From an uncultured Alphaproteobacteria bacterium (lineage in GTDB: Bacteria; Pseudomonadota; Alphaproteobacteria; UBA7879; VGCX01), in the NCBI GenBank assembly GCA_913061155.1, contig CAJXSI010000002.1:1167-65166 (forward strand): a stretch of 64,000 nt of DNA. The letters run 5' to 3'. The notes under the pieces were generated by a model that had not been told where the DNA came from, searched no databases, and saw only the letters and a program-made list of their open reading frames with translations. Positions 5,225-63,797 of this stretch are shown here, piece by piece; positions within the stretch are counted from its first letter, which is position 1, and every line of letters begins with the position of its first letter. Both the position numbers and the translations under genes were made by a program.

Positions 5225-5746
5225 TTAAGTATAAGCGGGGGGTGCGACAAATTCTTGTTCGCCAATTAAAACGCCCTCTTGACTGAACCTTCTTACTATG
5301 ACCATTCCTCCGCCGATAAACGCGGTATTAAGACGTAGGGTATCAATATCCGACGTTGTTTTAATCACGCACATATTTTCGCAAGAAATTATTCCGTGGA
5401 ACCCCCATGTTTTGGCGTCTATGGACAGATAGTCCCCTTCAATACGCCCTTTACCGTCAAGGATACCACAGGAAATATTCAAAAGATTCTTACCAGGCTG
5501 TTTCAATAGCCCTAAAATAGATAAAGCTTCTTCAGGATTTTCTGTGTGGACTTGATTTCGATGCGGACCTATGGGGGTATCGTCGTGATAGACCACGCCG
5601 CCACATACATTTAACAAAATGGGGGCCGCCCCATTTTCTGGATTAATTTCATCTTCAGCTGCCAAGCATTGACCGTTGAATGTCAAAATAGTTATAATAA
5701 TAAATAGAAATTGTTTCATCTTCATCCTTTTAAACTTAATTCTCAT
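5225..5746 (-). CDS. Secreted hypothetical protein, possibly a degenerate Cu/Zn-superoxide-dismutase-like fold
   Basis: Signal peptide (…FLFIIITILTFNGQCLAAED). Weak resemblance to SodC segments (…GPHRNQVHTENPEE…, …AFIGGGMVIV…), but metal ligands are not conserved in order. Confidence 0.45.
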   Translation of the reverse strand: MRIKFKRMKMKQFLFIIITILTFNGQCLAAEDEINPENGAAPILLNVCGGVVYHDDTPIGPHRNQVHTENPEEALSILGLLKQPGKNLLNISCGILDGKGRIEGDYLSIDAKTWGFHGIISCENMCVIKTTSDIDTLRLNTAFIGGGMVIVRRFSQEGVLIGEQEFVAPPAYT

Positions 5747-7329: not shown

Positions 7330-7995
7330 TGCTGATTCCCAAAACCTGTCAACGAATTTGTGCGCTTATACAGTCCCGGACTTGATGCGGGGCTCAGCCC
7401 CATTCTTTACCAGGTTTCCCGTTAAAATTTCCCAAAATCTGGACATATTGACACAGATATGGTTAACCTCAGCCAATGGGTTTTTTCGCTTTGCTTCATA
7501 ATTGCATTAAAGTGCCTAAAAAATAGGCAGGGAAAACCGCGAAAAATAATTTTTTTATTAAAAAAGTACCTACGCGCGCATGGCTTGGGCAAAATAGGCC
7601 CAACCAATTAATGCGGGCTACAGGCCCATAATAAATATAACTAACTGAAATAGCTGACTTATTTACCCATGCGTAAAACGCATACCATTTCCCGTTAATT
7701 TTACCCAGCCCCCCTTCATTGTCATTCCGGACTTGATCCGGAATCCACAGCGGTGTTTATTACAGACAATTTGATTGCCGTAGACTTCTAGCACCAGGGC
7801 GACGAGGTAAAATAGTCCGCTCATAACCTTAATGACAAACGATCCTACCCTGGTAATCTTATACGTATCGTCATCCCGGACTTGATCCGGGATCCAGTCA
7901 TAAACTAAACGGCAGGCGGGTTGTATCCAGTGACTACCGCCCTGGACTCCTGGCCAATCCTGGAATGGTAAGCAAGCGGCATCCCAATGCTTGAT
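7330..7995. repeat. Cluster of REP/MITE-like hairpin repeats. Includes a composite ~165-bp element (7790-7955) present as an inverted copy of elements in 12440-12720.
   Basis: Hairpins attccgga-CTTGA-tccggaat (7724-7744) and atcccgga-CTTGA-tccgggat (7873-7893), plus a degenerate copy at ~7374-7400. The block …gacaaacgatcctaccctggtaatcttatacgtatcgtcatcccgga… is the reverse complement of 12440-12530 and 12604-12700. Confidence 0.7.
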
Positions 7996-8129: not shown

Positions 8130-9440
8130 ATGCACGCAAATTTACCCCTAACACAAATTACTGTGATTGTTTTATGCGCACTGGTATGTGGATTATTATT
8201 CACACGGTTTAAACAGCCCGCTGTTTTGGGGTATGTCTTGGCGGGGGTTGTTCTGGGCCCGAACGTTTTATCGAATGGCGAGGATGTTTCGATGATTCGC
8301 GCCTTGGCAGAACTGGGCGTATTCATGTTGATGTTTTTAATCGGGGTGGAATTAAACTTAAGATCGTTTAAGGAAGTATGGCTACAGACCATTGGGGTGG
8401 TTACCTTGCAATTTGCAGGCAGTTTGGGGGCGATGTTCTTGGCATCTTTGGTGTTTAAATGGCCCTTTGCGTTGACGTTTTTGTTTTCTTGTATTGTGGC
8501 GCTAAGCAGTACGGCTGTCTCTATCAAAATGTTGGAATCAACGGGTGAGTTGCGCACAAATGTTGGACGCCTGACGGTTGGTATTTTAATTGCGCAAGAC
8601 CTTGCCTTCGTTCCGATGATTATCACCATTCAGTTTTTGGGTGGGGGGGATGTTTCCATTGCCATGCTGATATGGAAAGTCGCCTTAGCCGTTGGTATTA
8701 TCGCAACGTTGACTTGGTACCTTAGCCGGAATGAACGGATTTCATTGCCAGTGATTCATAAGACATCGCAAACAACAGAACTTGTTCCGTTATTGGCCCT
8801 GACATTTTGTTTTGGGTTGGCGGCGATTGCGGGTTTTTTGGGGTTGTCCGCGGCTTACGGTGCCTTTTTGGCTGGATTAGTTCTGGGGAACACAGCCGAT
8901 CGCCATTCAGTTATTAATGTGACACGTCCGATTCAAAGCACTCTGTTAATGGTTTTCTTCTTATCTGTTGGATTATTGGTTGATCTGAATTACATCTGGG
9001 ATAATATCCTTAAGGTAGCTTGGTTGTTGCTTACTATTGCCTTGGGGAAAACCATTTTAAACGCCACAATTTTGCATTTTTTCAAACAGCCGTGGTCCAT
9101 GTCTTTTTTATGTAGTTTGATGTTGGCCCAGATTGGAGAGTTTTCATTTGTTTTGGCAGACACAGCCGTAGAAGCAGGGGTGCTAAGCGTAGATGAAAAT
9201 AAACTGGTAATTTCCTTAACTGTTTTATCTTTGGTCTTCAGCCCATTTTGGGCAAAGGCAGCCAGTAAATTACAAGGCATGGATACCCTGAACTTAAGGA
9301 CGTTCCGGGATGGCATTAACACAATTTATGGGGCAGGGTTGCCAACGGCCCAATATGTATCAAAGTACGTTGTCCGCATCACAAAATATGGGAATAAAAT
9401 TGCCAAAACAATTAAACGTAAATTCCGAAAAAAGTCCTAA
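8130..9440 (+). CDS. Monovalent cation:proton antiporter-2 (CPA2/Kef-type Na+/H+ exchanger) family membrane protein
   Basis: About 12 TM segments. N-terminal …VLGYVLAGVVLGPNVL… and …ILIAQDLAFVPMI… are typical of the Na_H_Exchanger family. No C-terminal TrkA-N domain. Confidence 0.7.
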   Translation: MHANLPLTQITVIVLCALVCGLLFTRFKQPAVLGYVLAGVVLGPNVLSNGEDVSMIRALAELGVFMLMFLIGVELNLRSFKEVWLQTIGVVTLQFAGSLGAMFLASLVFKWPFALTFLFSCIVALSSTAVSIKMLESTGELRTNVGRLTVGILIAQDLAFVPMIITIQFLGGGDVSIAMLIWKVALAVGIIATLTWYLSRNERISLPVIHKTSQTTELVPLLALTFCFGLAAIAGFLGLSAAYGAFLAGLVLGNTADRHSVINVTRPIQSTLLMVFFLSVGLLVDLNYIWDNILKVAWLLLTIALGKTILNATILHFFKQPWSMSFLCSLMLAQIGEFSFVLADTAVEAGVLSVDENKLVISLTVLSLVFSPFWAKAASKLQGMDTLNLRTFRDGINTIYGAGLPTAQYVSKYVVRITKYGNKIAKTIKRKFRKKS

Positions 9441-10071
9441 GGCCTATGCCCCCAGCTTTGAATTTGAATCAAAATTTAATGGCATTGTGGCAGGTGTTGA
9501 CGAAGTAGGCATCGGGTCATGGGTTGGTCCCGTGATGGCGGCGGCAGTCATTCTTAAACCAGGGGTTTCCAAAGATATTTTGCAAAATCTGCAAGACTCC
9601 AAAAAATTATCCACCCCAAAACGGAATTTTATTTATCATCAGTTGTTAAAGTGTCCCCACGTTATTTATGGTATTGGGCAGGCAAGCGTTGATGAGATAG
9701 AGGCCTTGAATATTCGCCAGGCCACCTTTTTGGCCATGTCCCGCGCGGTCGATGCGTTGGGTGTAAAACCAGACGCCGCCATTGTGGATGGAAAGGCGCG
9801 CCCAATTTTGCCGTGCCCGATTCAAATGGTTATTAAGGGGGATCAACGAAGTTTTTCCATCGCGGCCGCGTCCATCATTGCCAAAGTAACACGGGATCAA
9901 TTTATCAAGGACTTGGCTGAAAAATTCCCAGAATATGGTTGGGATAAAAATGCAGGCTATGGAACACAAAAACATCGCGACGCCCTTAATAATCAAGGTG
10001 TAACTGACTTCCATCGCAAGGGATATGCGCCGATTGCAAGGCTTCTATGCCCAGAAAGACTTGAAAATTAA
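9388..10071 (+). CDS. rnhB: Ribonuclease HII. The start is uncertain. The ORF is open from 9310, and the ATG at 9388 overlaps the antiporter 3' end.
   Basis: …GIVAGVDEVGIGSWVGPVMAAAVIL… and …SIAAASIIAK… catalytic motifs. Confidence 0.75.
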   Translation: MGIKLPKQLNVNSEKSPKAYAPSFEFESKFNGIVAGVDEVGIGSWVGPVMAAAVILKPGVSKDILQNLQDSKKLSTPKRNFIYHQLLKCPHVIYGIGQASVDEIEALNIRQATFLAMSRAVDALGVKPDAAIVDGKARPILPCPIQMVIKGDQRSFSIAAASIIAKVTRDQFIKDLAEKFPEYGWDKNAGYGTQKHRDALNNQGVTDFHRKGYAPIARLLCPERLEN

Positions 10072-10205
10072 GGGTTTTCTTGTTTTTTCGCCTTGAATTA
10101 TTGTTGGCATCCTCTTACATTATCCGTTGAATAATCATTTTATCATGTAAAAGTAATTTTACTATTGGGCAATCAAAAACGTCGAAACGAAAGGAAACTT
10201 AAGAA

Positions 10206-10964
10206 ATGAAGAAAATTTTAATGTGTACAGCTGCGGCAACCATGCTTGCAGGATCCGCCTTTGCAGATAACGGCGCTTACGTTGGTTTTGGCCTTGGGAA
10301 TACCTTTGCGAATATATCAAATAAAACAAATGCCTCAGCTTATGATGTAGATACAGGCAAAACTGAATATCACTCTTTTGGTAACAGAAGATTAAAAGAT
10401 AAAACAGGAACTACAGGAAAATTATATGCAGGGTATGAATATGAAATGCAAGAATTTTCATTGCTTTTTGAAGGTGGATATACCCTTGATACTTCTGAGG
10501 CTGAATATGGAAATGAAACCAGTGGTGAAAACAATCTGGAATTAGATGGAACACCATCTTCTGTCGGGCCTGATGACAGTGATCCCGTTATTACTTCTAT
10601 GAAGTTAAAAAGAAACCACATTGTTTCTGTTGGAATGGGGATAAAAAAGGAAGTGGCCGCGAAATTTTCTGTAATGGGTGGTTTGGACCTTTTACATAGT
10701 CAATTTAAATTCCAAAGTAAAGGGACGGCTGATTACACGACAGGTGTTAACTCTGTTGTTAAGAAGAAATCTAAGTTTGGACTGGCACCGTGGGTTGGAA
10801 TGTCCTGGGATGCAGGAATTGTTGAAGCAGGATTAAGATATCAATATTCCAGATATCAACAGTTGAAAACTGGCGGGGATTATACTCCAAACAAGTTTAA
10901 CATCGCCAATAAAATCAAACCTGAATACCATACAATTATGGTAACAATTTCAAAGAAAATATAA
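10206..10964 (+). CDS. Outer-membrane beta-barrel-type protein, paralog A. Same family as 23361-24098.
   Basis: SD AAAGGA. Signal peptide …AGSAFA|DNG. About 45% identical to the 23361-24098 product, with shared blocks …YHSFGNRRLK…GKLYAGYE…KFGLAPWVG…AGLRYQYSRYQ…KPEYHTIMVTISKKI. Confidence 0.6.
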   Translation: MKKILMCTAAATMLAGSAFADNGAYVGFGLGNTFANISNKTNASAYDVDTGKTEYHSFGNRRLKDKTGTTGKLYAGYEYEMQEFSLLFEGGYTLDTSEAEYGNETSGENNLELDGTPSSVGPDDSDPVITSMKLKRNHIVSVGMGIKKEVAAKFSVMGGLDLLHSQFKFQSKGTADYTTGVNSVVKKKSKFGLAPWVGMSWDAGIVEAGLRYQYSRYQQLKTGGDYTPNKFNIANKIKPEYHTIMVTISKKI

Positions 10965-10991
10965 ATTTAATAAAAAGTTAAGAGGTTCATT

Positions 10992-12065
10992 ATGAAAAAT
11001 ATAAAAACAATTCTTTTAGGCGCATCGATGCTGATGTCATTAAATTCAATAGCAACACAATACAATAGCTATGATGAATTACCGGCTAAAGCAAAAAGAA
11101 GGGCAATTAAGTGCGCAACTGTAGTTCCAGAATACCAAGGTATTACGCCTGAACAAGTTGCACGCAATTTTGGTTGGATAGTCGGAGAGGCTATTCCTAA
11201 AAATGATGCAGAAGCACGTGAAAGGTTGAGAACAGCTGCCGCCGCAGCAAGAACAGCTGCCGCCGCAGTTGCTGCCGCTGCTCAACCAGTAGCAGGAGCT
11301 CCAGGATCAACAAGATCAGCATTGCGTTCAGCATCTGCAGAATCAGATTCAGAGGACGATGCACAAGCAGGAGCAGGAGCTCCAGGATCATCACGGTCTT
11401 CAGTAGCCTCAGGAGCAGGAGCTCCAGGATCAGCAAGAACAGCAGCCGGCGGTAGAACTCCAGGATCATCACGGCATTCAGCCGCCACAGGTAGGCCAAC
11501 TTTAGCATCACGGCTAGCAGCAGAAGCAGCAGAACCAGATAGCCATGAATCAGGCTACTCTGTTGCAAGGCTTCCTAGTGATTTGGAGGGTATCATTCTT
11601 GACCTTGACGCGGGAAATCCTATAAAAATATGGATGGGAAGTAATTCTATTACGATGGATGATCTAGGCAAAGCCTATGGTAAATTAACAGGTTCGGATA
11701 AAGATAAGCGTGAAAAACTTGCCCAGGTTTTAAATGCATTTGCCGCGGCGAGTGGAACTGAAGGCTTTCTCGAAGATATGCTAAATGCTTGTGCTTGTCT
11801 AGAAGGTGCCGCAGCAGCAGCCGCAGCTCCAGCCGATGAAACTCCAGCAGCCGCCGCTGGCAATGGGACAAAGCCAACATGGGCTACTGTTGTCGCTCCA
11901 CCAGAAGGTGCAGCAGCCGGCGCAGCCGCAGCTCCAGCAGCTTCACCAGCAGCAGCCGCAGCAGCTCCAGCTCCAGCTCCAGCCGATGAAACTCCAGCAG
12001 CTTCAGAAGGTGGTGCAGATGGCGCAGCAGTAGGCGATAGAACTCCAAAAGGAAAAGGAAAATAA
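10992..12065 (+). CDS. Secreted low-complexity, tandem-repeat protein. GC-rich Ala/Gly/Pro/Ser core and a Lys-rich tail.
   Basis: SD AAGAGG. Signal peptide MKNIKTILLGASMLMSLNSIA. Repeats GAGAPGS(x)RS… at nt ~11280-11480 and a duplicated APADETPAA unit (11823-11851 and 11970-11998). Ends …RTPKGKGK. A rho-independent terminator follows. Confidence 0.65.
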   Translation: MKNIKTILLGASMLMSLNSIATQYNSYDELPAKAKRRAIKCATVVPEYQGITPEQVARNFGWIVGEAIPKNDAEARERLRTAAAAARTAAAAVAAAAQPVAGAPGSTRSALRSASAESDSEDDAQAGAGAPGSSRSSVASGAGAPGSARTAAGGRTPGSSRHSAATGRPTLASRLAAEAAEPDSHESGYSVARLPSDLEGIILDLDAGNPIKIWMGSNSITMDDLGKAYGKLTGSDKDKREKLAQVLNAFAAASGTEGFLEDMLNACACLEGAAAAAAAPADETPAAAAGNGTKPTWATVVAPPEGAAAGAAAAPAASPAAAAAAPAPAPADETPAASEGGADGAAVGDRTPKGKGK

Positions 12066-12115
12066 CCGAAAGGTTAATCTACTAATTCTTTAACTAATAT
12101 TGAATAAATAAAAAA

Positions 12116-12138
12116 CCCCGCACACTGCGGGGTTTTTT
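12116..12138 (+). terminator. Rho-independent terminator after 10992-12065
   Basis: ccccgca-cac-tgcgggg followed by TTTTTT. Confidence 0.7.
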
Positions 12139-12159
12139 GCATGACAGGGAAAAATTAGG

Positions 12160-13075
12160 ATTATTCATTAACTTTGCCACAATGGCCTTCCGGCCACTCC
12201 GTCATCGCAAGTAGCCAAAGGATGCGTGGTAATCCATACGCCATCGACCTCCTCCAACTTCGTCGCCCCGCGCTTGATGCGGGGCCCAGGGCGGCAGTCA
12301 TCGGACACAATTTTCGTCATTCTGAATTTAGTTCAGAATCCATGTATCTCTGGCAGGTAAGGTATTTGTGATGAACACCGCTGTGGATTCCGGATCAAGT
12401 CCGGAATGACAATGAAGAAAGATGTCTAAGGTGGACTGGATTCCGGATCAAGTCCGGGAGGACGATACGTATAAGATCACCAGGGTAGAATCATTTGTCA
12501 TTAATCCTATGAGCGGACCTATTTTACTTCGTCGCCCCGTGCTTGACACGGGGTCCAGGGCGGCACTCACCGGATACAACCCGCCTGCTTTTTAGTTTAT
12601 GACTGGATTCCGGATCAAGCCCGGGACGACGATACGTATAAGATCACCGGGGTAGGATCGTTTGTCATTAATCCTATGAGCGGACCTATTTTTATTCGTC
12701 GCCTCGTGTATAGGTTCAGTAATTCGATGGCTATTTTACTTCGTCGCCCCGTGTATAAGTTCAGTAATTCGATGGCTATTTTACTTCGTCGCCCCGTGCT
12801 TGACACGGGGTCCAGGGCGGTATTCACCGGACACAATTTTCGTCATTCTGAATTTAGTTCAGAATCCATGTATCTCTGGCAGGTAAGGTATTTGTGATGA
12901 ACACCGCTGTGGATTCCGGATCAAGTCCGGAATGACAATGAAGAAAGATGCCTAAGGTGGACTGGATCCCGGATCAAGTCCGGGAAGACAATGAAGAAAG
13001 ATGTCTAAGGTAGACTGGGTCCCACGGTCAAGCCGTGGGATGACGGCAAAAAAGAAGTATCAAGGGCTGGGCAGA
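12160..13075. repeat. Dense array of REP/MITE-like elements. Contains ~180-bp direct repeats (12276-12460 and 12792-12975), a 52-bp tandem array (~12698-12830) and many CTTGA-loop hairpins.
   Basis: Hairpins at 12276-12294, 12387-12407, 12440-12458, 12538-12556, 12792-12810, 12912-12932, 12966-12984 and 13020-13040. Near-identical 180-bp blocks. Unit ttcgtcgccYcgtgtataRgttcagtaattcgatggctatttta repeated 2.5×. Confidence 0.75.
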
Positions 13076-13189
13076 CAAAACGAAGACGTCTATGATTTAA
13101 AACCACAAGGAGATGTTAATAACAATTTTCAAGCCACGAGGAGAGAGTGATGAAAACATTAGGGCTACAAGGAGAAGGGGATGAAAACC

Positions 13190-14086
13190 TTAAGAGCGTG
13201 GGTGGGTTTTTGTATAAATCTGTTTTAGTTTTTCCCGGTTAATATCGGTGTAACGTTGGGTGGTGGATAAGGAGGCATGCCCCAATAATTCTTGGATGGT
13301 GCGCAGGTCGCCGTCTGTCTCCAACAAATGGGTGGCAAATGTATGGCGTAATGCGTGGGGTGTTACCGTTTCTGGCAAGCCTATTCTTCGCCGGATATCG
13401 CGAATTTGTTTTTCCGCCACACTGATATTTAACCGTCCCCCCTTTTCTCCGTAAAACAATGGGCCTGAATCAAAAGGGCAAAAACTTATATACTTTTTAA
13501 TGGCACTGGCAACCACTGGCAACACGGGAACCAATCGTTCTTTGTTGCCTTTTCCTTTAATCCGCAAAACTGTATCAGCCATATCTTTTTTATCCAGCGC
13601 CAATGCCTCACTGATACGAAGGCCGCATCCATAAAGCAGTGTAAATAAGGCCAAGTTTCGTCGGTTGATCCAATCATCGCGATCATCTTCTTCGCAGGCA
13701 TCCAACAAATCGATTGCTTGGGATTTTGATAACCCACGCGGAATTGACTTTGGTATTTTGGGGGATCTTATATTTTGAATAATGGGATTGTGAAGAATAT
13801 CTTGACGGTCCAAATATTTATAAAAACTACGTACCACACTTAAGGCCCGGGCAATGGATGATTTGGCCAATTTATTTTCATTCAACTGACCAAGCCAGGC
13901 GCGGAAATCAATCGCCTTTAAACCTTCCAATGTTTTCAGGGTGGGCGCCCCCCCTTGATAGTGGGTGATGAAATTTAAGAATTGATCCAAGTCTTTTGTA
14001 TAGGCCAAAAAAGTATTGGTGGATAATTGGCGTTCTGATTGCACCCATGTTATCCACCTTTTAATGACTTGTTCGATGTTTTGCAT
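13190..14086 (-). CDS. xerC: Tyrosine recombinase XerC. The start is taken at the ATG overlapping the tal stop by 1 nt; the ORF is open to 14122.
   Basis: C-terminal …HALRHTFATHLLETDGDLRTIQELLGHASLSTTQRYT…HPRS catalytic R-H-R-Y region. Confidence 0.8.
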   Translation of the reverse strand: MQNIEQVIKRWITWVQSERQLSTNTFLAYTKDLDQFLNFITHYQGGAPTLKTLEGLKAIDFRAWLGQLNENKLAKSSIARALSVVRSFYKYLDRQDILHNPIIQNIRSPKIPKSIPRGLSKSQAIDLLDACEEDDRDDWINRRNLALFTLLYGCGLRISEALALDKKDMADTVLRIKGKGNKERLVPVLPVVASAIKKYISFCPFDSGPLFYGEKGGRLNISVAEKQIRDIRRRIGLPETVTPHALRHTFATHLLETDGDLRTIQELLGHASLSTTQRYTDINREKLKQIYTKTHPRS

Positions 14087-23360: not shown

Positions 23361-24098
23361 TTAAATTCTTTTTGATAACGTGATAAAGACTGTATGGTAT
23401 TCAGGCTTTGTTTTTGTCATAATATTGAATTTTGAAGGGCTATAATCCCCTGACATTTTTAATTCTTGATACCTGGAATATTGGTACCGAATACCTGCTT
23501 CCATCCCATTAAAATCCAAGGAAGCCCCAACCCAAGGCGCCAGACCAAGTTTATATTTTTTCTTATTTACATCTGAAACTGTAGGAGAGTAATCTGCCGA
23601 TGGCGCGCTTTCCATTTCAAATCTGGAATACAAAAGATCCATGCCTATTTTTGCACTTAGGGCAGAGTTAATTTGTTTTCTGGCACCAATACTAACTGAA
23701 AAAGTATGTTTTCTGTTTAGTTTAACAATGCTGATTTCTGGCTCATCCGGCGGAGTGGCTGAATCAAATGTATCATCTAAAGTTAATATTTTTGCATGTT
23801 TTGCAGTCAGCCCATCATACAGATAACCAGATTCAAAAAAAATCGGCAAGGTATCCATTTCATATCCAAAGAATAACTTTCCTGCAAATGCGCCATTGTG
23901 TTTTAGGCGACGGCCACCAAAATAATGATATTCTATTGGTCGTCCCATTTCCACTCTATCTTGTGCACTGGCGTAGACATCGTTTTGCATATCGGCAAAG
24001 TTAAGGCCGGCACCCAGGCCTATATAGTAATTGCCTTCTGCCTTTGTGCCACACGCGCCAATAATAAAGATAAGTAAGAATTTATAGAATGCCTTCAC
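23361..24098 (-). CDS. Outer-membrane beta-barrel-type protein, paralog B
   Basis: Signal or lipoprotein-like N-terminus (…FIIGACGTKAEG). Shares blocks with 10206-10964, down to the C-terminal KPEYHTVFITLSKRI. Confidence 0.6.
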   Translation of the reverse strand: MKAFYKFLLIFIIGACGTKAEGNYYIGLGAGLNFADMQNDVYASAQDRVEMGRPIEYHYFGGRRLKHNGAFAGKLFFGYEMDTLPIFFESGYLYDGLTAKHAKILTLDDTFDSATPPDEPEISIVKLNRKHTFSVSIGARKQINSALSAKIGMDLLYSRFEMESAPSADYSPTVSDVNKKKYKLGLAPWVGASLDFNGMEAGIRYQYSRYQELKMSGDYSPSKFNIMTKTKPEYHTVFITLSKRI

Positions 24099-35651: not shown

Positions 35652-36770
35652 ATGAAATTAACCATCGAAAAATCTACGTTATTAAAAGCCCTAGGTCACG
35701 TTCAAACAGTGGTTGAGCGTCGAACAGTCACCCCAATTTTGGCCAATGTTTTATTAGAGGGGACTGATGGAAAGCTTAAATTAACAGCAACTGATCTGGA
35801 TATTTCGATTCAAGAAGAAACATCTGCGAAGGTTCAGCAAAAAGGCAGTGCAACCGTTTCGGCCCACACGTTTTATGATATTGTTCGCAAATTGCCAGAT
35901 GGATCAGATGTTGAATTATCCCATGATGCAAGTTCAGGACAATTTCAACTATCGGCAGGGCGGTCAAATTTCACCCTTCCTTCTTTGCCAGCTGAAGATT
36001 TTTCAAATATTAAAACGTCTGACTTTCCGCACAGCTTTGTTGTGACATCCGAAGAATTACGTCATTTGTTGGCCAGTACACGTTTTGCCATGTCAACAGA
36101 AGAAGCCCGATATTACCTGAATGGAATTTACCTGCACACAAAGAAAGTTGATAACGATATATTCCTGCGCACCGTTGCCACAGATGGCCACCGTTTGGCA
36201 ATGTCAGAAATTCCAGAACCAGATGGTGCAGATGGTATGCCGGATGTTATTATTCCACGCAAAACAATTGCTGAGGCAACAAAGGTATTGGAAAATATGG
36301 AAGGAAATGTAAAAGTTTCTTTGTCCCATACCCAGATTGCTTTTAACTTGGGGGCTGTCCAAATTACGTCCCGGTTGATCGATGGGGCTTTCCCTGATTA
36401 TGAAAAAGTAATCCCATATGATAACCAAAGCGTTTTGACCATCAGCCGCAAAAGCTTTGCTGAGGCTGTGGACCGTATCGCGACAATCTCATCAGATAAA
36501 ACACGATCAATTAAAATCACAATTGAATCGAACAAAGTCCAAGTTTCCGTTTCCAACAGCGATCAAGGAAGTGGGGCAGAGGAAATTGAAGCAACCTATG
36601 ATGGTAAGCGATTAAGTATTGGATTCAATGCCCGTTATGTTTTGGATATCTGTCAGCAAGTTGAAAGTGATACCTTGAAATTTTTATTGGCAGATGAAAC
36701 AGCGCCAGCCATTATCCGCGGCCTGGAAGACGAAGGCAGTCTTTATGTTTTGATGCCAATGCGTGTGTAA
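35652..36770 (+). CDS. dnaN: DNA polymerase III beta sliding clamp
   Basis: MKLTIEKSTLLKALGHVQTVVERRTVTPILANVLLE… canonical N-terminus. ~372 aa. Confidence 0.9.
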   Translation: MKLTIEKSTLLKALGHVQTVVERRTVTPILANVLLEGTDGKLKLTATDLDISIQEETSAKVQQKGSATVSAHTFYDIVRKLPDGSDVELSHDASSGQFQLSAGRSNFTLPSLPAEDFSNIKTSDFPHSFVVTSEELRHLLASTRFAMSTEEARYYLNGIYLHTKKVDNDIFLRTVATDGHRLAMSEIPEPDGADGMPDVIIPRKTIAEATKVLENMEGNVKVSLSHTQIAFNLGAVQITSRLIDGAFPDYEKVIPYDNQSVLTISRKSFAEAVDRIATISSDKTRSIKITIESNKVQVSVSNSDQGSGAEEIEATYDGKRLSIGFNARYVLDICQQVESDTLKFLLADETAPAIIRGLEDEGSLYVLMPMRV

Positions 36771-36820
36771 TAGCCTTAACAACAAGTGGCTATGGACACT
36801 TTTAACAAAGGTTACTAAGG

Positions 36821-37936
36821 ATGCAACAGATCCAGCCATGCTGGCTTAGAACACTTAAACTTCAGAACTTTAGAAATTTTTCTTCTTTAAACATAACTGT
36901 TCCGAAAGATCCGATTATTATCGCGGGGCCAAATGGCATTGGGAAAACCAATATATTGGAAGCGATTTCTTTGTTTTCCCCAGGAAAAGGTCTGCGCCAA
37001 TCAAAGCTTGGGATTATTAAAAAATCAGATGTCCAAGATCAGGGCTGGTTTATTAATGCAGACTTTGAACACCAACACCAAGATCTGAATATTGGCACTG
37101 GGCTGGATTTATCGACAGCTTCTGAACGGCGTATCGTTAAGGTCAATGGGGAAAAATCTTCCCAAACAGCATTGAACGATTGGATAAAAATTTTATGGCA
37201 AACACCCCAGATGGATCGTTTGTTTATTGATGGAATGACCATCCGCCGTAAGTTTTTTGATAAGTTATTGGTGAATTTTTCACCAGAGCATTCCAAGCAT
37301 CTTTATCGATATGATTATGCTTTGCGGGAACGATCCAAATTGCTTCGCGAGGGGATTATGGATCAAAAATGGCTGGCCGTTTTGGAACAAAAAATGGCCC
37401 AAGAATCAATTGCCATTACGGCGAACCGACTGGATTATTTGTCGCAGCTCCAGGGATTTTTGGAACAAGAAATTGAAGGCTTCCCTAAAATCGCGGTTTC
37501 TTTAGAGGGGGATGTTGAAACCCTTATTCATGAAAATTCCGCAACAGTGGCTGAAGAACGTCTCCAAGAAAGGCTTTGCCAGAATCGAAGTCGGGATTCT
37601 GTTATGGGTGGGTCAAAAATTGGGGCACATCAGTCAGAATTTCTTGTTTTGAACCTTGATTGTAACCAGCAAGCTGAGGTATGCTCTACGGGTGAGCAAA
37701 AAGCACTGCTATTGACTTTGATCATGGCAAATGCCCGGTTGCTTGCAACAGTTCATGAGGTTGCCCCCATCCTTTTGTTGGATGAGGTTGTTGCCCATTT
37801 AGATGAAAACAGACGACAAGTCTTATTCAACGAAATTTTAAAGCTTGGAATCCAGTCTTGGTTGACAGGGACAGATGTCCAAGTGTTTGAGCCATTAAGA
37901 AAACATGGTCACTTTATAAACTTAAACGAAAGATAG
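36821..37936 (+). CDS. recF: DNA replication and repair protein RecF
   Basis: Walker A …GPNGIGKTNILEAISL…, signature …LSTGEQKALLL…. Confidence 0.85.
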   Translation: MQQIQPCWLRTLKLQNFRNFSSLNITVPKDPIIIAGPNGIGKTNILEAISLFSPGKGLRQSKLGIIKKSDVQDQGWFINADFEHQHQDLNIGTGLDLSTASERRIVKVNGEKSSQTALNDWIKILWQTPQMDRLFIDGMTIRRKFFDKLLVNFSPEHSKHLYRYDYALRERSKLLREGIMDQKWLAVLEQKMAQESIAITANRLDYLSQLQGFLEQEIEGFPKIAVSLEGDVETLIHENSATVAEERLQERLCQNRSRDSVMGGSKIGAHQSEFLVLNLDCNQQAEVCSTGEQKALLLTLIMANARLLATVHEVAPILLLDEVVAHLDENRRQVLFNEILKLGIQSWLTGTDVQVFEPLRKHGHFINLNER

Positions 37937-37939
37937 TAG

Positions 37940-42137
<4,198 letters not shown>

Positions 42138-52266: not shown

Positions 52267-52626
52267 ATGGCTTATGATAAAAACAACATTTTTGCAAAAA
52301 TCATTCAGCGAGAAATTCCCTGTGATAAGGTTTATGAAGATGATTTTTCTTTGGCCTTTCGCGACATATCCCCTAAGGCAAAAATTCATGTATTGGTGAT
52401 TCCAAAAGGCATGTATACAGGCTTTGATGACTTTACTGATAACGCATCGGATAAGGAAAAAGTCGGATTTTCCACGGCTGTTTCCAAAGTTATTAAACAG
52501 TTAAATTTATCAGAAAAGGGGTGCCGCCTTATTTCAAATTTAGGCAACGATGGTGGGCAAGAAGTTCCCCATTATCACGTGCATATTTTAGGGGGCGAAA
52601 CACTGGGGGCGTTGATTGGAAAATGA
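52267..52626 (+). CDS. HIT-family (histidine triad) nucleotide hydrolase
   Basis: …VPHYHVHILGG… HxHxHxx motif. Confidence 0.8.
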   Translation: MAYDKNNIFAKIIQREIPCDKVYEDDFSLAFRDISPKAKIHVLVIPKGMYTGFDDFTDNASDKEKVGFSTAVSKVIKQLNLSEKGCRLISNLGNDGGQEVPHYHVHILGGETLGALIGK

Positions 52627-54203
52627 TGAAAAAAATATTTTTTATAGTAATATTCTTAGGCTTATCCTTTAAGTCATTTGCTGTTATCGAAACAGAAGAT
52701 ATCGGCGGTATCAACCCAGAAACAGTTGGGGTCAATACGTATGATACAAAATTTATTCCAACAGATCTTTGGGAAGGGCTTTCGCATACACAAGTTGTCC
52801 GGCTTATCAAAAATTTACCGACGAAATTTAAAAATAATTTTTGGACCCGCCTGCAAATATCTTTGCTTTTGTCCCCTATGAAAGTGCCTGAAAATAAAAC
52901 TGGTGAAAATAATATTTTCAATTTAAGATTTGAAAAACTGCTTGATATGGAAGCAGTTGACCAGGCTTATAATCTTGGGAAAAATCATGCGGATCAATTG
53001 GATGAAGATAGTTGGGCATGGTGTCAATTTATACATTTTCTGATTCATAATAATTATGATAAGGCCTTCAGTATTGCACAGGAATTTGCCTTAAAAGACA
53101 AGGATAACAAATGGCAACATGCGGTTATCACAATGCAATTATTGATGGGGAAAGATGACCAGGCTAACTTAAGTTTATCTTTGCTTGAAAAAGAAAATAA
53201 AAAACAAGATCATCATTTTATCAAAACCATCAAACAAATTCAGGCAGGGGAAAAAATCAAAGGCACTGAACATTCACCCCACCGTCCATTGATCATTAAA
53301 TTGATGGTATCTAAAAATATTATTCCTGAAGATATGAGTATTGAATCCATGTCAGATGACATCATTTTAATGATGATATTGGATCCTGGGTTTGAAAAAT
53401 TTTCAGATCGAATGAAGTTATCAATTCTTGAATATTATACAGAACAAAGTACACATAAGCCGCAATTATTAAAAGATCATTATCTGAAATTGGCAACAGA
53501 AGATCTGGTGAAAGAGGCTACTCAGAAAATTTCCAATAAAGAATATGATAAAGAAAATGATCCGTTAATTCGGGCGGCTTTGTATAAAATATTTGTTGAT
53601 TCAGAAGGCGAAGAAATAAAGAAAATGGCTTTTTCTGCTTTTTACAAAAATGCTTATGCAAATAAAATTTTAACGGTGGCGGTTGCTTGTTTTGGTAACG
53701 ATTATAATTATCCTGCTGCCGCTTATGACAAAGATTATTCCTTTGCGTTTGTTCTGCATAATTTAATGTTGCAAAACAAAAGCCAAATGAAGGCTTGGGT
53801 TGAAGGGTTGAATCAGGAAGAACTTTCTGAATTATCTTTGATTCTTCTTGCAAGTTGTAACTTGGATTATTTTTCAGGGGAAACACAAGAACATTTGATG
53901 GAAAACGTAAAAAAAATATATTTAGAACCTGCAAAAAAATTCTTATTTAAAGAGAAACTAAAGTTTTTACATAACGTTTCGTCCCCCTTTAAATTATCAG
54001 ATAGTCGTTTGATTGATGTCATTTCAGGGCAGTATGGTTTTGGGGCAGGTTTATCCATTCTTCTTAGTTCATCACAGTCCATATTATCAACAGATGTCTG
54101 GCAGGCTGCTGTTCAACTTCGTGTTTTAGAAGCCCTTAAACTGAAAAACCAGGCAACACAACTGCGACAGCTTTATGCTTATTCTTCTGCCAAGGATGAA
54201 TAA
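52623..54203 (+). CDS. Large secreted hypothetical protein (~526 aa), likely all-alpha
   Basis: The ATG overlaps the HIT stop (ATGA). Signal peptide MMKKIFFIVIFLGLSFKSFA. No recognisable motifs. Confidence 0.5.
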   Translation: MMKKIFFIVIFLGLSFKSFAVIETEDIGGINPETVGVNTYDTKFIPTDLWEGLSHTQVVRLIKNLPTKFKNNFWTRLQISLLLSPMKVPENKTGENNIFNLRFEKLLDMEAVDQAYNLGKNHADQLDEDSWAWCQFIHFLIHNNYDKAFSIAQEFALKDKDNKWQHAVITMQLLMGKDDQANLSLSLLEKENKKQDHHFIKTIKQIQAGEKIKGTEHSPHRPLIIKLMVSKNIIPEDMSIESMSDDIILMMILDPGFEKFSDRMKLSILEYYTEQSTHKPQLLKDHYLKLATEDLVKEATQKISNKEYDKENDPLIRAALYKIFVDSEGEEIKKMAFSAFYKNAYANKILTVAVACFGNDYNYPAAAYDKDYSFAFVLHNLMLQNKSQMKAWVEGLNQEELSELSLILLASCNLDYFSGETQEHLMENVKKIYLEPAKKFLFKEKLKFLHNVSSPFKLSDSRLIDVISGQYGFGAGLSILLSSSQSILSTDVWQAAVQLRVLEALKLKNQATQLRQLYAYSSAKDE

Positions 54204-54217
54204 CAGTGACAGCGCCC

Positions 54218-55114
54218 ATGAATGTTTTGGAACAATTTCTGGAAATGTTAATTGTGGAACGTGGGGTTGCAAAAAACACATTGGAATCTTACCGTCGCGA
54301 TTTATTATCGCTTTTTCAATTCTTTTCTGGGAAATCAATTAATCCCATTCAGGCCACATCAGAAAACTTAAAAATTTATTTATCTGGTTTACCTGATGGG
54401 GGATTGTCTGCCCGGTCGATTGCCCGGCATATTTCATCCATTAAACAATTTTATCGTTTTCTGATTTTGGAAAATACGATAACAATAGATCCAACAACAA
54501 TAATAGACAGCCCAAAACAAGCCAAGTCGCTGCCAAAAATTTTATCTGAAAAAGACATTGAATCTTTGCTGTTAACAGCAGCCGAAGATAACAGTCCGGA
54601 AGGACTTCGTTTAATGGCATTGCTTGAAACATTGTATGCGACAGGGCTGCGTGTGTCTGAATTGGTTATGTTGACCCATGGGGCTTTTTCTTATGAATCC
54701 GATACCATCATTGTCAAAGGGAAGGGGGCCAAAGAACGAATCGTCCCTTTGGGAAGTCATGCCCGAACTGCTCTTAAAAAGTATGTTGGGGTGCGGGGAT
54801 ATTTTGTACACCGCAAACAAAGCAAGTGGTTGTTTCCATCAACCAGTAAAGAAGGTCATTTAACCCGGCAGCGGTTTGGTCAATTGTTAAAACAGTTGGC
54901 AATGGATGCGGGGCTGGATCCATCAAAAATATCGCCACATGTTGTGCGTCATGCCTTTGCTACACATTTACTAAGTCACGGGGCTGACCTTATTTCTGTT
55001 CAGAAAATGCTGGGCCATTCCGATATCTCAACGACACAAATTTATACCCACGTTTTGCAAGATAAATTGCAAGACTTGGTTTTAAATCATCATCCATTGG
55101 GAAAGAAAAATTAA
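54218..55114 (+). CDS. xerD: Tyrosine recombinase XerD. An in-frame GTG at 54206 is also possible.
   Basis: …HVVRHAFATHLLSHGADLISVQKMLGHSDISTTQIYTHV…HHP… C-terminus is typical of XerD. Confidence 0.8.
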   Translation: MNVLEQFLEMLIVERGVAKNTLESYRRDLLSLFQFFSGKSINPIQATSENLKIYLSGLPDGGLSARSIARHISSIKQFYRFLILENTITIDPTTIIDSPKQAKSLPKILSEKDIESLLLTAAEDNSPEGLRLMALLETLYATGLRVSELVMLTHGAFSYESDTIIVKGKGAKERIVPLGSHARTALKKYVGVRGYFVHRKQSKWLFPSTSKEGHLTRQRFGQLLKQLAMDAGLDPSKISPHVVRHAFATHLLSHGADLISVQKMLGHSDISTTQIYTHVLQDKLQDLVLNHHPLGKKN

Positions 55115-55131
55115 GTTATTTTTGTCACATT

Positions 55132-56058
55132 TCATCGTAATGCGACTTCCAGTCTTTCAAGAATGGTGATGGTAAGGCTAGCATGAACAACATAATGAAA
55201 AAGGCGAACTTTCCAACCATTATACAGGCCGCTGATTCCGTATTTTCGGTAAAGATCCTGCATGGCTTTGAACAGGCGCGTACGTCCACTGGTTGTGTTT
55301 TTTTGTTGCTGGGTTTTAACGCAGTCAAAGGGCATAATAAACAAAGTATTTATAATTCCTACAAGAATACTGATGATAAATAAAATCCAAAAATCCAATG
55401 GCCCATCCGTTTCAAAATGTTTACGGGCGCTGCCTCTGAAAAAATCATCCGCCACTAAAAAAGTTATCCAAGATACCATTTGTTTTACATATACAGGGCG
55501 AAGTCCTGCCATAAGTTGAAGGCCTAAGCCCTTTCTGTTTTTTGTAAAAAAGTAAAGCAAGCCCCTTTTGCTTTTGTAATGTGTCATCAGCCAAACTTTG
55601 ATCCGTTCAAGGGGCGTGATGATAAAGCATTCAAAATTGGCAATGATAATGGCAGATACCAATTTATTCATTTCAGACCGCTTAAAAACTTCCAAAGATT
55701 CCAGCCCCAAAGGAATAAATAACATCATTGGCCACCGATAGATTTGTTTGATGACAACACGCAGGGTGTTGGGGATGTATCCCCGATAAAATCCCATCAG
55801 GCCATTACTGCGATAGATGTTTTTTGTAACAGCCAGGGCGCTATGGTTGTTGGGCAAGGCCTGCATATTTGTTTTAATACAATCCAAAGGATGTTCAAGA
55901 GGCAGGGCAAGCGCCCCGCGGACGGCGCCATAAAAACTGACCTTTGCGTATTGGTCCCACGTAAAACTTTTGGCAACGCAAGGTTTGGGGGGCAGGACAA
56001 TAAAGGTCAATAAAAATATAAAAATTCGATATTTCTGCATGGTGCCTAAACATATCAC
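55132..56058 (-). CDS. Mitochondrial carrier family (MCF/SLC25-like) transporter
   Basis: Three tandem ~100-aa repeats, each with an odd-helix Px[DE]xx[KR] signature (PLDCIK, PLERIK, PFDCVK). Each is followed by the G..G…YRG/GL.P motif (…GFYRGYIPNTLR…, …GLGLQLMAGLRPVYVKQ…, …GISGLYNGWKVRL…). Confidence 0.75.
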   Translation of the reverse strand: MICLGTMQKYRIFIFLLTFIVLPPKPCVAKSFTWDQYAKVSFYGAVRGALALPLEHPLDCIKTNMQALPNNHSALAVTKNIYRSNGLMGFYRGYIPNTLRVVIKQIYRWPMMLFIPLGLESLEVFKRSEMNKLVSAIIIANFECFIITPLERIKVWLMTHYKSKRGLLYFFTKNRKGLGLQLMAGLRPVYVKQMVSWITFLVADDFFRGSARKHFETDGPLDFWILFIISILVGIINTLFIMPFDCVKTQQQKNTTSGRTRLFKAMQDLYRKYGISGLYNGWKVRLFHYVVHASLTITILERLEVALR

Positions 56059-62549: not shown

Positions 62550-63797
62550 CTAGAATTTTAGACGTGCACCAAGCATGACTACGTGAATATCTTTATAATC
62601 TTTTGTGCTTGATTTTTGAACATCAAATTGATGACCACGCCATGTTAAGAACATTTCTGTTGCGGCACTATCAAATTTTTGCAATGCTGTCGCACCAAAT
62701 AATTTTGCCGTTCCTTTTTTGTCCGCATCTGTTGATAGGTTACGTGTTTGACCATAGTCAACAGAGAAGATTGTTTTACCACAATCCAACATATCAACAT
62801 GTTGTCCAAGTTTTACAAAATAGTTTTCAGCATTTGATCCACCAGGACGGTTTCTGTAATCACGTGTTCCCCCTGCAAAACTGATGTTTGTACCAAAAGG
62901 TGCAAGAACGGACAAACTTCCGTTATATTGCTTGTATTGACCCCCATCGTTTCTGACGGCTGCGGCAGCTGCACGAACTGTGTAGCCACTGATCTTTGCG
63001 CCATAGAACAAGGCGGCATCATGTGTGCTGTTATTACCAGTTGTTGATCCTGAGGCACTGTGTCCTACGCGAAGTTGGACCCCTTGAAAGATTGGTGAGT
63101 CATAACGAATGCGTTGCTTACGACCATTCCCGTCGAATGGGTCGTATACTTCAATTAAGCGTGGGCTTGTTTTTGGATCAGTGGTTATTTCGCCTTTGTT
63201 CACGAAATAAGATGAATCTGTCAAGTAAGATGATGTTGCAAGATATGTTCCCGAAAGATCTTGTTCAGATGAATCGTCTGTTGCACTTGGTCCTTTACCC
63301 ATATATAAAGTACCCATTTTTTGACTCATCAACAAAAATTCTGCCCGCCTTGGATCAAGGTTATTTTTCTTAGCAGCGCCGGATCGAAGACTTACATCGG
63401 AAGAGTTATTAGGTCGGTAACCAAATTCAAAAATACTTTTTGCCGTTAAATCGTCACTGATGGGTGCTTCAGCAATAAAATGCGTACGTGTTGTACTGTT
63501 ATTGTTTGTTACGTGATAAACACCAGTTTTGGCCCCATCATCAGCCCAAGCTGTGGCAACGCTTACGTGTCCACCAATTGTTAGTTTAACTTTTTCATCA
63601 CGGGAATGAACAACTGTATTATCAGATTGTTTATGCATACGGCTGGACCCAGAAGATTTCCCTTCCAAGGCATCCAAACGTGCATTTAATTCATTAATTT
63701 GTTGGCGCAAAGTCATTACTTCGCTGGAATCTGCATGGCTTATTCCTGCAGAAAGAATCGCTGCTACAGCTGCAAAACCTATTAGAACTTTTTTCAT
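62550..63797 (-). CDS. Outer-membrane porin-like beta-barrel protein with an N-terminal coiled-coil segment
   Basis: Signal peptide …ILSAGISHA|DSS, coiled coil (…LRQQINELNARLDALEG…), alternating amphipathic strands, C-terminal …VMLGARLKF ending in aromatic Phe. Confidence 0.55.
   Translation of the reverse strand: MKKVLIGFAAVAAILSAGISHADSSEVMTLRQQINELNARLDALEGKSSGSSRMHKQSDNTVVHSRDEKVKLTIGGHVSVATAWADDGAKTGVYHVTNNNSTTRTHFIAEAPISDDLTAKSIFEFGYRPNNSSDVSLRSGAAKKNNLDPRRAEFLLMSQKMGTLYMGKGPSATDDSSEQDLSGTYLATSSYLTDSSYFVNKGEITTDPKTSPRLIEVYDPFDGNGRKQRIRYDSPIFQGVQLRVGHSASGSTTGNNSTHDAALFYGAKISGYTVRAAAAAVRNDGGQYKQYNGSLSVLAPFGTNISFAGGTRDYRNRPGGSNAENYFVKLGQHVDMLDCGKTIFSVDYGQTRNLSTDADKKGTAKLFGATALQKFDSAATEMFLTWRGHQFDVQKSSTKDYKDIHVVMLGARLKF

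Follow-up and report, generated by a model that had tools for sequence, protein, structure and literature searches.

A hypervariable Ala-rich repeat protein with a predicted signal peptide is encoded beside an outer-membrane protein gene in an uncultured alphaproteobacterium

A 64,000-nucleotide stretch of DNA from an uncultured alphaproteobacterium (the window; positions 1,167 to 65,166 of contig CAJXSI010000002.1, assembly GCA_913061155.1) contains a gene at 10992-12065 (+), here called the target gene, which encodes an Ala-rich protein of 357 aa and ends with a TAA stop at 12063-12065. The body of this protein, after a conserved N-terminal domain, is hypervariable between close strains. The variation arises by in-frame expansion and contraction of repeats, by gain and loss of modules, by mosaic patches and by replacement of the target gene together with the outer-membrane protein (OMP) gene that precedes it. 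Weighing all explanations, we favour with moderate confidence the one in which the target is an exported, hypervariable envelope protein, the second gene of the OMP unit, whose diversity results from pressure at the cell surface.

The variation is evident from contig L009 (JAXMOI010000023.1 of GCA_034669985.1), which we reached via P0003, the 96%-identical cluster representative of the OMP. Its flanks are 96.7-98.2% identical to the window, and the positional orthologue of the target is 280 aa long, against 357 aa in the window. A sequence-only reading of the window had proposed that the length of the protein varies between strains and that related genomes be compared at this locus; the predicted variation was borne out: the copy number and the sequence of the repeats differ between close strains. 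Only the first ~115 residues of the target are shared with L009. At the DNA level, homology extends from the promoter to 11378, is lost across 11379-12046 and returns at the stop codon and terminator. The two alleles differ in length by 231 nt, that is, by exactly 77 codons, and frame and stop are preserved. A 63-nt unit, SALRSASAESDSEDDAQAGAG, is present in 2.5 copies in L009 (97% match) versus one in the window. The L009 allele also contains related SALHSADSPVA units and a 30-nt array of 3.4 copies encoding AAAKKA(E/Q)EE; it has a single GAPGSAR unit near the C-terminus versus four APGSxR motifs in the window, and it lacks the central module of the window protein. Contig L010, from a third sample, has an N-terminus of the L009 type and breaks within the 63-nt repeat. 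Finally, two 7.6-kb contigs from two assemblies, L020 and L021, differ from each other by one single-nucleotide polymorphism and by one indel of 48 nt, which is exactly one AKAKSEAKAKAAAEAK unit. The earlier suggestion of slippage-prone repeats thus fits the 63-nt and 48-nt units and falls short for the rest, which involves whole modules, different repeat families, a mosaic patch and a cassette swap.

The window allele itself was recovered repeatedly. Contigs from several metagenomes encode the identical 357-aa protein and agree with the window at 99.8-100% identity along as much as 9.4 kb. Four further contigs with an identical OMP gene match the window and all end in the Ala/Pro tail, at 11847-11929, a pattern usual where assembly breaks at repeats.

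The N-terminal part can be aligned between the window and L009 and allowed us to compare rates. Over 113 aligned codons, the nonsynonymous and synonymous divergences (dN and dS) were 0.128 and 0.22, compared with a dN of 0.003-0.031 and a dS of 0-0.11 for ten flanking genes. The differences are unevenly placed. In codons 33-51 the proportions of synonymous (pS) and nonsynonymous (pN) differences were 0.46 and 0.32, whereas codons 52-100 gave 0.13 and 0.04; codons 33-51 thus appear as a sharply bounded mosaic patch. The signal peptide is the best-conserved segment of the family, with a pN of 0 against L009. Since pS is raised along with pN, the pattern points to recombination between old alleles rather than to simple positive selection on new mutations.

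Replacement on a larger scale was seen in contigs L018, L019 and L027, which match the window with 91.6-97.5% identity as far as position 10313, where nucleotide homology ends. Beyond it, the OMP is only 51-53% identical at the protein level, and the next gene carries an N-terminus of a different type (type B, below); all three contigs end inside this repeat gene. Since the flanks are alike and both the OMP and the following gene differ, the OMP-target pair has been exchanged jointly between near-conspecific strains. The positions concerned are as follows.

10206-10964 (+): OMP gene, 252 aa, with signal peptide; modelled by AlphaFold2 (AF2) as an 8-stranded beta-barrel.
10313 (no strand): left breakpoint of the swappable cassette as placed by blastn, 108 nt into the OMP gene, just past the signal peptide and the first strand.
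10347-10361 (+): tip of OMP loop 1 (loop taken from the AF2 model), where VDTGK is replaced by EGIST through 7 substitutions within 14 nt, all nonsynonymous.

The OMP of the window was modelled. Its AF2 model, built from a 10-sequence alignment, is an 8-stranded beta-barrel (predicted local distance difference test score, pLDDT, 77; predicted template-modelling score, pTM, 0.72). Foldseek matched the model to OmpA-TM, OmpX, Ail, NspA and Pla with modest TM-scores of 0.33-0.45. The protein is 49-60% identical to its relatives, several of which match PF13505 (OMP_b-brl); the OMP of the window itself fell below significance in Pfam. Of the 10 differences between the window and L009 OMPs, nine lie at the tips of extracellular loops 1 and 2 as modelled, and the loop-1 tip is flanked by more than 100 identical nt on each side. 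A second cluster of differences between the two OMPs was seen at 10554-10580. In the family alignment, the variable columns coincide with the four modelled loops. As judged from the model, this loop-tip variation would be a signature of surface pressure.

The target is a genuine gene and comes second in a two-gene unit made up of the OMP gene, the target gene and a terminator. The distance between the OMP stop and the target start is 27 nt, with no terminator between them, and from this spacing the two genes are probably co-transcribed; the terminator at 12110-12138 ends the unit. The features of the target gene are given here.

10980-10985 (+): ribosome-binding site AAGAGG, 6 nt 5' of the ATG, identical in L009.
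10992-11054 (+): Sec-type signal peptide MKNIKTILLGASMLMSLNSIA, residues 1-21, with the n-h-c pattern and predicted cleavage after S-I-A, followed by TQ.
11055-11249 (+): conserved N-terminal domain, residues 22 to ~86 (~65 aa), helical, LPAKAKRRAIK...GITPEQVARNFGWIVGEAIPKNDAEARERL; the sole part common to homologues.
11088-11144 (+): mosaic hypervariable patch within the N-terminal domain, codons 33-51, as defined by comparison with L009.
11229-11519 (+): low-complexity block 1, residues ~80-176, rich in Ala, Gly, Ser and Arg, 55% GC, with RTAAAAA twice, APGSxR four times and the acidic segment SAESDSEDDAQAG.
11517-11810 (+): orphan central module, residues ~176-273 (~98 aa), 41.7% GC, free of repeats and absent from the L009 allele.
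11808-12062 (+): low-complexity block 2, residues 273-352, Ala/Pro-rich by composition, 61% GC, with a short basic tail, KGKGK, at its end.
12110-12138 (both strands): bidirectional intrinsic terminator AAAAAACCCCGCACACTGCGGGGTTTTTT, a strong hairpin that is kept in L009.

Several other frames are open across this tract, which raises the question of whether the target is a chance open reading frame (ORF) in stop-poor, GC-rich repeats, with an alternative-frame ORF, or none, being the real one. We consider this effectively refuted and the least probable of the alternatives. The ribosome-binding site, the signal peptide and the terminator, the frame kept over the 231-nt difference between alleles, and an N-terminus that is conserved across lineages with a pN/pS below 1 all identify the target as a real gene, and the alternative ORFs sit on DNA that is missing from the other allele. 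The sequence-only reading had named two such ORFs, both on the opposite strand, as spurious. Both are indeed by-products of the stop-poor composition, but only one is antisense: 11197-11568 (-) encodes 123 Leu-rich residues, and most of its DNA, the part beyond 11378, is missing from the L009 allele. The other, 11806-12033 (+), is a 75-aa ORF rich in Gln, Pro and Leu in an alternative frame on the same strand as the target.

The signal peptide of the target has a hydrophobic region of ~12 residues followed by the S-I-A cleavage motif. It contains neither a lipobox Cys nor a twin-Arg motif, and residues 1-40 contain no Cys. A single-sequence AF2 model of the target was uninformative (pLDDT 42). 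Judged by its composition, the body of the protein is probably mostly disordered.

The repeats in the body are more extensive than chance would give: over 1000 shuffles of codon order the longest exact repeat averaged 11.1 nt, with 17 nt as the extreme, whereas the observed one spans 28 nt. This is the unit APADETPAA, CAGCTCCAGCCGATGAAACTCCAGCAGC, with copies at 11824-11851 and 11974-12001; the duplicate had been described as a 29-nt unit at 11823 and 11970 and written out with 26 letters, so its existence stands and its length and coordinates needed correction. The motif APGSxR(S/T/H) is present in four copies: three are exact, GAGCTCCAGGATCA at 11296, 11377 and 11419, and the fourth, GAACTCCAGGATCA at 11455-11468, is degenerate. 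A 21-nt unit encoding RTAAAAA is present twice at 11229-11268. The GAGAPGS-type motifs that the earlier description had counted as three or four were found, but not the clean tandem array that a tandem-repeat core implies: Tandem Repeats Finder detected no arrays other than short or weak ones, of which the best (21 nt in 1.9 copies) scored 80, and the units are degenerate and interspersed, with spacings of 81, 42, 36 and 150 nt. Every repeat period detected is a multiple of 3 (6, 12, 15, 21, 30, 36, 48 and 63). Hence, changes in these repeats alter size and sequence and do not switch the gene on and off; we found no repeat period that would shift the frame, as in phase variation.

The GC anomaly that first drew attention to the locus is real. 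By sliding GC, 11200-12060 has 53.2% GC versus 40.2% for the whole window, a background slightly above the ~38% assumed in the sequence-only reading. The check for GC deviation proposed there placed the segment in the top 0.06% of 860-nt windows, this being the fraction that attains 53.2%; the maximum (0.536) begins at 11181. The single GC-rich core of that reading is in fact two blocks, 11200-11560 at 55% and 11801-12060 at 61%, separated by 240 nt of an ordinary 41.7% that encode the non-repetitive module. The dominance of GCN, GGN and CCN codons was confirmed (29%, 11% and 7% of the 287 codons within 11202-12062), and Ala makes up 25.8% of the target residues versus 7.5% in 32 other genes of the window. 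The GC excess is restricted to codon positions 1 and 2: GC1/GC2/GC3 are 0.64/0.63/0.22 in the target and 0.49/0.37/0.37 on average in the 32 other genes. The GC3 of 0.22 is below that of every one of these genes (mean 0.37 +/- 0.05, minimum 0.28). The GC peak thus results purely from amino acid composition, that is, from codons for Ala, Gly and Pro, and the low GC3 excludes a GC-rich foreign island.

This bears on the possibility that the locus is horizontally acquired GC-rich DNA, such as an island or a prophage remnant. The local peak of 53-61% against 40% and the different, A-ending codon preferences would suit such an origin. Yet a GC3 below the genome norm, with all of the excess in positions 1 and 2, a central module of native GC, and a slot after RNase HII and the OMP that is syntenic in all relatives (six lineages) do not, and no PHROG or viral-contig matches were found. 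We regard foreign origin as effectively refuted and very improbable; an origin from phage in particular was rejected on the lack of PHROG and viral-contig matches. In general terms, even a striking GC anomaly can be wholly compositional and need not mean foreign DNA.

The codon bias deserves mention in its own right. Synonymous choice in the target favours GCA (50% versus 25% in the other genes), CCA (80% versus 30%) and TCA (63% versus 23%), and the A-ending bias extends to GGA. The coding-strand AT skew across the target repeats is +0.32 to +0.36, and the repeat genes of relatives are likewise rich in GCA and GAA. The bias may stem from the ancestry of the repeats, from expression level or from a need to avoid GC-rich structure.

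When 1.84 billion (1.84e9) cluster representatives were searched exhaustively with phmmer, the target itself and one other protein, P0007, were the only matches. This protein of 305 aa is the syntenic orthologue in L012, a more distant relative, and matches residues 4-86 of the target with 54% identity (E = 2e-14). We relied on phmmer because word-indexed protein search is unreliable for low-complexity proteins and had missed even the 84%-identical N-terminus of L009. Pfam, NCBIfam and PHROGs gave no match to the target (Pfam at E <= 0.01 for the whole protein and at E <= 10 for the two non-repetitive segments), sequence and profile searches of the Protein Data Bank (PDB) gave nothing significant, and a scan of GTDB species representatives with the target protein revealed no close relative. 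Nor was any match obtained in JGI metagenomes, whether from an N-terminal alignment, whose patterns fell within the signal peptide, or from a 32-nt degenerate pattern encoding GWIVGEAIPKN. The target is best described as belonging to a previously unnamed family confined to an uncultured lineage known only from metagenome-derived data. The gene content of that lineage (NDUFA12-like, DUF2155, TilS-FtsH-GlmM) points weakly to an alphaproteobacterial affiliation.

We define this family, type A, by a signal peptide and an N-terminal domain with ...G(L/I)TPE(Q/D)VAR..GWI...PK..AEARERL, in a gene that follows the RNase HII-OMP pair; the window, L009, P0007 of L012, L014 and L015 all share these features. 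A profile of the L012, L014 and L015 proteins aligned with residues 4-85 and no others, with 34 bits for the window and 48 bits for L009, and on this ground a relationship between the central module and the modules of L012, L014 and L015 was rejected. No search that we ran found a homologue of the central module. Its start (11517-11660, GYSVARLPSDLEGIILDLDAGNPIKIWMGSNSITMDDL) gave a weak match over 47 residues (E = 1.8) to PDB entry 3pjy_A, a 'hypothetical signal peptide protein'. The pattern common to both, G..R...G.L.D....P...WM...D.L, is non-significant and lacks Pfam support at E <= 10.

The OMP was a more productive query and led to seven further homologues, 49-60% identical, whose loci we compared. 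Synteny around the target slot is kept in all relatives. In six lineages, the gene or genes directly after RNase HII-OMP always have products that begin with a signal peptide and continue as Ala-rich repeat or low-complexity sequence, and these proteins are unrelated in length and sequence. Those of the relatives measure 386, 326, at least 198 and at least 145 aa, and one multi-module protein, interrupted by a scaffold gap of 100 N, exceeds 540 aa; altogether, the range is 280 to more than 540 aa. Two N-terminal types can be distinguished. Type A is that of the window, L009, the 305-aa protein of L012, L014 and L015. Type B, which begins MKKTLKxLLLGTTL..., is that of the 476-aa protein of L012 and of L018, L020 and L027.

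L012 encodes both types. Its gene order is MlaD, DUF2155, ..., UDG, Na/H exchanger, RNase HII, OMP (PF13505), the 476-aa gene and the gene for P0007. The 476-aa protein has a signal peptide and 6.7 copies of a 36-nt unit (97% match; consensus read as AARVKAEEEAAE). An identical terminator plus ~78 nt (AAACCCCGCCTTGGTGCGGGGTTTTTT..GGTAGGCTGTAAAAGTTTTAGGGAAATTCGTGCCATTTAACCTGGA) follows both the 476-aa and the 305-aa gene (L012:7805-7900 and 8919-9020), which suggests that one of the two repeat-protein genes was inserted or duplicated along with its terminator. The type A orthologue of L014 (L014:8030-8129, 8899-10105) contains recurring modules of ~60 aa, AAHVRxAIE...PRDFGALF..., to which the 100-N gap within the gene can probably be attributed. 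It is followed by a truncated second copy of the OMP (199 aa) and by a 179-aa signal-peptide protein made of the same ~60-aa modules. Altogether, nine short-read contigs end inside repeat genes of the target type.

How these observations could be joined is set out as follows. The target would be exported by Sec to the envelope and would act there, probably in concert with the adjacent OMP. Docking or another function may reside in the conserved N-terminal domain, and the tail of Ala, Pro, Gly and Ser may serve as a disordered, extended spacer or coat. Diversifying or frequency-dependent pressure at the surface, exerted by phages, grazers or a eukaryotic host, would maintain the diversity or at least permit it. 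Surface exposure or host interaction, which the sequence-only reading had considered typical of such repeats, is plausible; it rests on the Sec signal, the OMP partner, the loop-tip variation of that partner and the eukaryote-like genes of the genome.

Several points weigh against this explanation. All comparison sequences are metagenome assemblies, in which repeats are prone to mis-assembly, and the 48-nt difference between L020 and L021 could be an assembly artefact. Within the species, only two type A alleles are known; the eight invariant contigs with the window allele are clonal (flanks 99.8-100% identical) and bear neither way on variability. The pN/pS is below 1 (0.55-0.70) and pS is also raised in the N-terminal domain, a pattern that fits recombination of old alleles or relaxed constraint as well as positive selection. 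As regards co-transcription with the OMP, the L012 orthologue is preceded by a terminator of its own and a spacer of 200 nt. Lastly, we found no lipobox, beta-barrel, autotransporter domain, sortase motif or C-terminus of the type 1 secretion system (T1SS) in the target, which could simply stay in the periplasm.

The main rival builds on these points: the target would be an unconstrained periplasmic protein (a spacer, a chaperone-like or an OMP-associated protein) that drifts neutrally, without selection from outside the cell. The lack of a surface-targeting signal and the pN/pS below 1 agree with it, and indels driven by repeats are mechanically expected. In addition, Ala/Pro-rich and Ala/Lys/Glu-rich segments are classic of the envelope spacers of TolA, TonB and the OmpA hinge, and the L009 allele has helix-forming repeats of the AAAKKAEEE type. 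On the other hand, the N-terminal domain is not repetitive and evolves 4-40 times faster than the neighbouring genes, with a sharply bounded mosaic patch, and in the adjacent OMP it is specifically the loop tips that vary. Moreover, the OMP-target pair is swapped as a unit with a breakpoint in the OMP, which is hard to explain without selection for diversity or frequent local recombination. We hold neutral periplasmic drift to be rather unlikely, but of all the rivals it retains the largest share of our credence.

A more specific form of the envelope explanation is that the barrel and the disordered protein are a co-adapted surface module. The N-terminal domain would dock on the barrel or at the interface of peptidoglycan and outer membrane, and the tail would project as a shield or decoy; populations of this uncultured, probably eukaryote-associated clade would keep many old and mutually exclusive module types (type A and type B genes, with OMPs ~50% identical) by recombination and by negative frequency-dependent selection through phages, grazers or hosts. 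We offer this as a tentative proposal that is itself rather unlikely. If true, this would be a family not described before, with surface hypervariability organised in a new way, and would offer a tractable case of balanced polymorphism at the surface of an environmental alphaproteobacterium that is possibly intracellular.

Known generators of diversity were sought in the window. Silent donor cassettes or paralogues of the variable region were not found within the 64 kb by tblastn and blastn-short, which returned chance matches of 11-15 nt only. As for a diversity-generating retroelement (DGR), the window has no template-like copy, and no reverse transcriptase was present among the ORFs scanned (~36 of the 52 of at least 150 aa). 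The variable patches show substitutions of every kind (T>A, A>G, C>T, G>A, A>C), with no DGR-like bias for adenine. The window has two genes for tyrosine recombinases of the XerC/XerD type, at 13190-14086 and 54206-55114. The former was considered as a driver and rejected: relatives carry GlmM-FtsH-TilS at its position, and same-species contigs join XerC to other genes.

The segment between the target and this recombinase gene, 12140-13190, contains short palindromic units resembling miniature inverted-repeat transposable elements (e.g. TGGATTCCGGATCAAGTCCGGAATGACA and CGCCCCGTGCTTGACACGGGGTCCAGGG; also at 7714-7764) and a duplication spaced by 526 nt, which is collapsed in L002. Contigs that are otherwise 99.7-100% identical diverge here, leading to the target in the window and L031, to UbiE-Fpg-S20 in L028 and to a gene for leucine-rich repeats (LRRs) in L032. 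The segment is either a rearrangement hotspot or an assembly ambiguity.

Two proteins bear on the lifestyle of the organism. The first is encoded in the window at 55132-56058 (-); it is a tripartite protein of 307 aa (41% GC) that matches PF00153 Mito_carr with E = 1.8e-34 and has three PX[DE]XX[KR] motifs, at 57, 149 and 243, ~95 residues apart. To our knowledge, mitochondrial carriers are essentially eukaryotic. A known bacterial example is the Legionella effector LncP (PMC3252375). The second is encoded by L032 (L032:3892-4686), a contig of the same species (99.97% identical across Tal-XerC), and consists of a signal peptide, a poly-Ala segment (AAAAAAASSG) and LRRs of the ribonuclease-inhibitor (RNI) type (LTRLTTLNLSGGGIGDAGATAIAES). 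It is a eukaryote-like domain on another exported protein with an Ala-rich start. The Mito_carr protein suggests that the organism is associated with eukaryotes and possibly intracellular; together, the two proteins are consistent with eukaryote association and lend some prior weight to a role of the target as a host effector.

According to that alternative, the target would be a secreted effector or adhesin for a eukaryotic host whose disordered repeats bear short linear motifs, as in the tandem-repeat proteins (TRPs) of Ehrlichia, which are disordered tandem-repeat effectors (PMC10028187). The disordered, repeat-rich composition with acidic Ser/Asp/Glu units (SAESDSEDDAQAG) would fit, as would a genome that encodes a mitochondrial-carrier-family protein with its three motifs and a same-species contig that encodes an RNI-type LRR protein. 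Against this, the target has an N-terminal Sec signal peptide, unlike substrates of the type 1 and type 4 secretion systems; we found no secretion-system genes in the window and no sequence similarity to any effector family, and the lifestyle of the organism is itself inferred. We consider a host effector improbable.

Elsewhere in the window, the dnaN-recF-gyrB cluster at 35652-40369 suggests an origin-proximal region. Four ORFs have no Pfam match at E <= 0.01: 52521-54203 (+), 560 aa; 62550-63797 (-), 415 aa; 23361-24098 (-), 245 aa; and 5225-5746 (-), 173 aa. The 560-aa and 173-aa ORFs also lack an NCBIfam match.

The target family is the fastest-evolving locus of its genomic neighbourhood and is unannotated. 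Its repeats explain the recurrent breaks of short-read assemblies at this site, and the locus is a practical marker for strain typing in an uncultured lineage. The target is also a candidate surface determinant that phages, predators or a host may recognise.

Comparison with known systems places the target among envelope proteins of similar make-up. The OMP neighbour resembles small barrels of the PF13505 OMP_b-brl, OmpA-TM, OmpX, Ail and NspA kind in its 8-stranded model. As in Neisseria porB and opa and in Anaplasma msp2/p44, a small barrel varies at its loop tips and alleles are replaced by recombination between close strains. No silent cassettes of the msp2, vlsE or pilS type were found within the 64 kb. 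The locus differs from the porB, opa and msp2/p44 loci in having no frame-shifting repeats and in that the variable unit is a pair, an OMP and a separate secreted low-complexity protein.

VLPT is used for strain typing. It belongs to the TRPs of Ehrlichia and other Anaplasmataceae (TRP32/VLPT, TRP47, TRP120), which are alphaproteobacterial, disordered and built of Ser-rich acidic repeats whose in-frame copy number varies by strain (PMC10028187); the target likewise shows a strain-variable, in-frame number of repeats. In contrast to the target with its Sec signal, TRPs have no N-terminal signal peptide and use type 1 secretion. Their units are long and near-perfect, whereas those of the target are degenerate and rich in Ala, Gly and Pro, and TRPs are not characterised by a linked OMP gene. 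No homology to TRP32, TRP47, TRP75 or TRP120 was found by phmmer (1.84e9 representatives), Pfam or NCBIfam.

Other likenesses are compositional. Neisseria Lip (the H.8 antigen) and the N-terminal H.8 domain of Laz are exported and consist of imperfect Ala/Pro/Glu (AAEAP) repeats with a local anomaly in GC and composition. The target, too, carries an export signal and is dominated by imperfect Ala-rich repeats with a GC anomaly; Lip and Laz, however, are lipoproteins with a lipobox Cys, and the target has no lipobox, no AAEAP unit and no homology to them. TolA domain II (an Ala/Lys/Glu-rich helix), the Pro-rich spacer of TonB and the Ala-Pro hinge of OmpA are extended periplasmic spacers. They resemble the Ala/Pro-rich segments of the target and the AAAKKAEEE and AKAEAEEAAKAK-type segments of the L009 and L020 alleles. 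Unlike TolA, TonB and OmpA, the target has no N-terminal membrane anchor (its signal is cleavable and ~12 residues long in its hydrophobic part) and no TolA_C, TonB_C or OmpA_C domain, and those spacers are not hypervariable between strains. Mycobacterial Apa (45/47 kDa) is Sec-exported, Ala/Pro-rich, largely unstructured and antigenic; the target shares the Sec signal and the Ala/Pro-rich, low-complexity character, but Apa is from a different phylum, is not homologous and has neither repeat-driven allelic variation nor an OMP partner. The target is thus an unnamed example of a familiar class, the fast-evolving, variable-length repeat proteins of the bacterial envelope.

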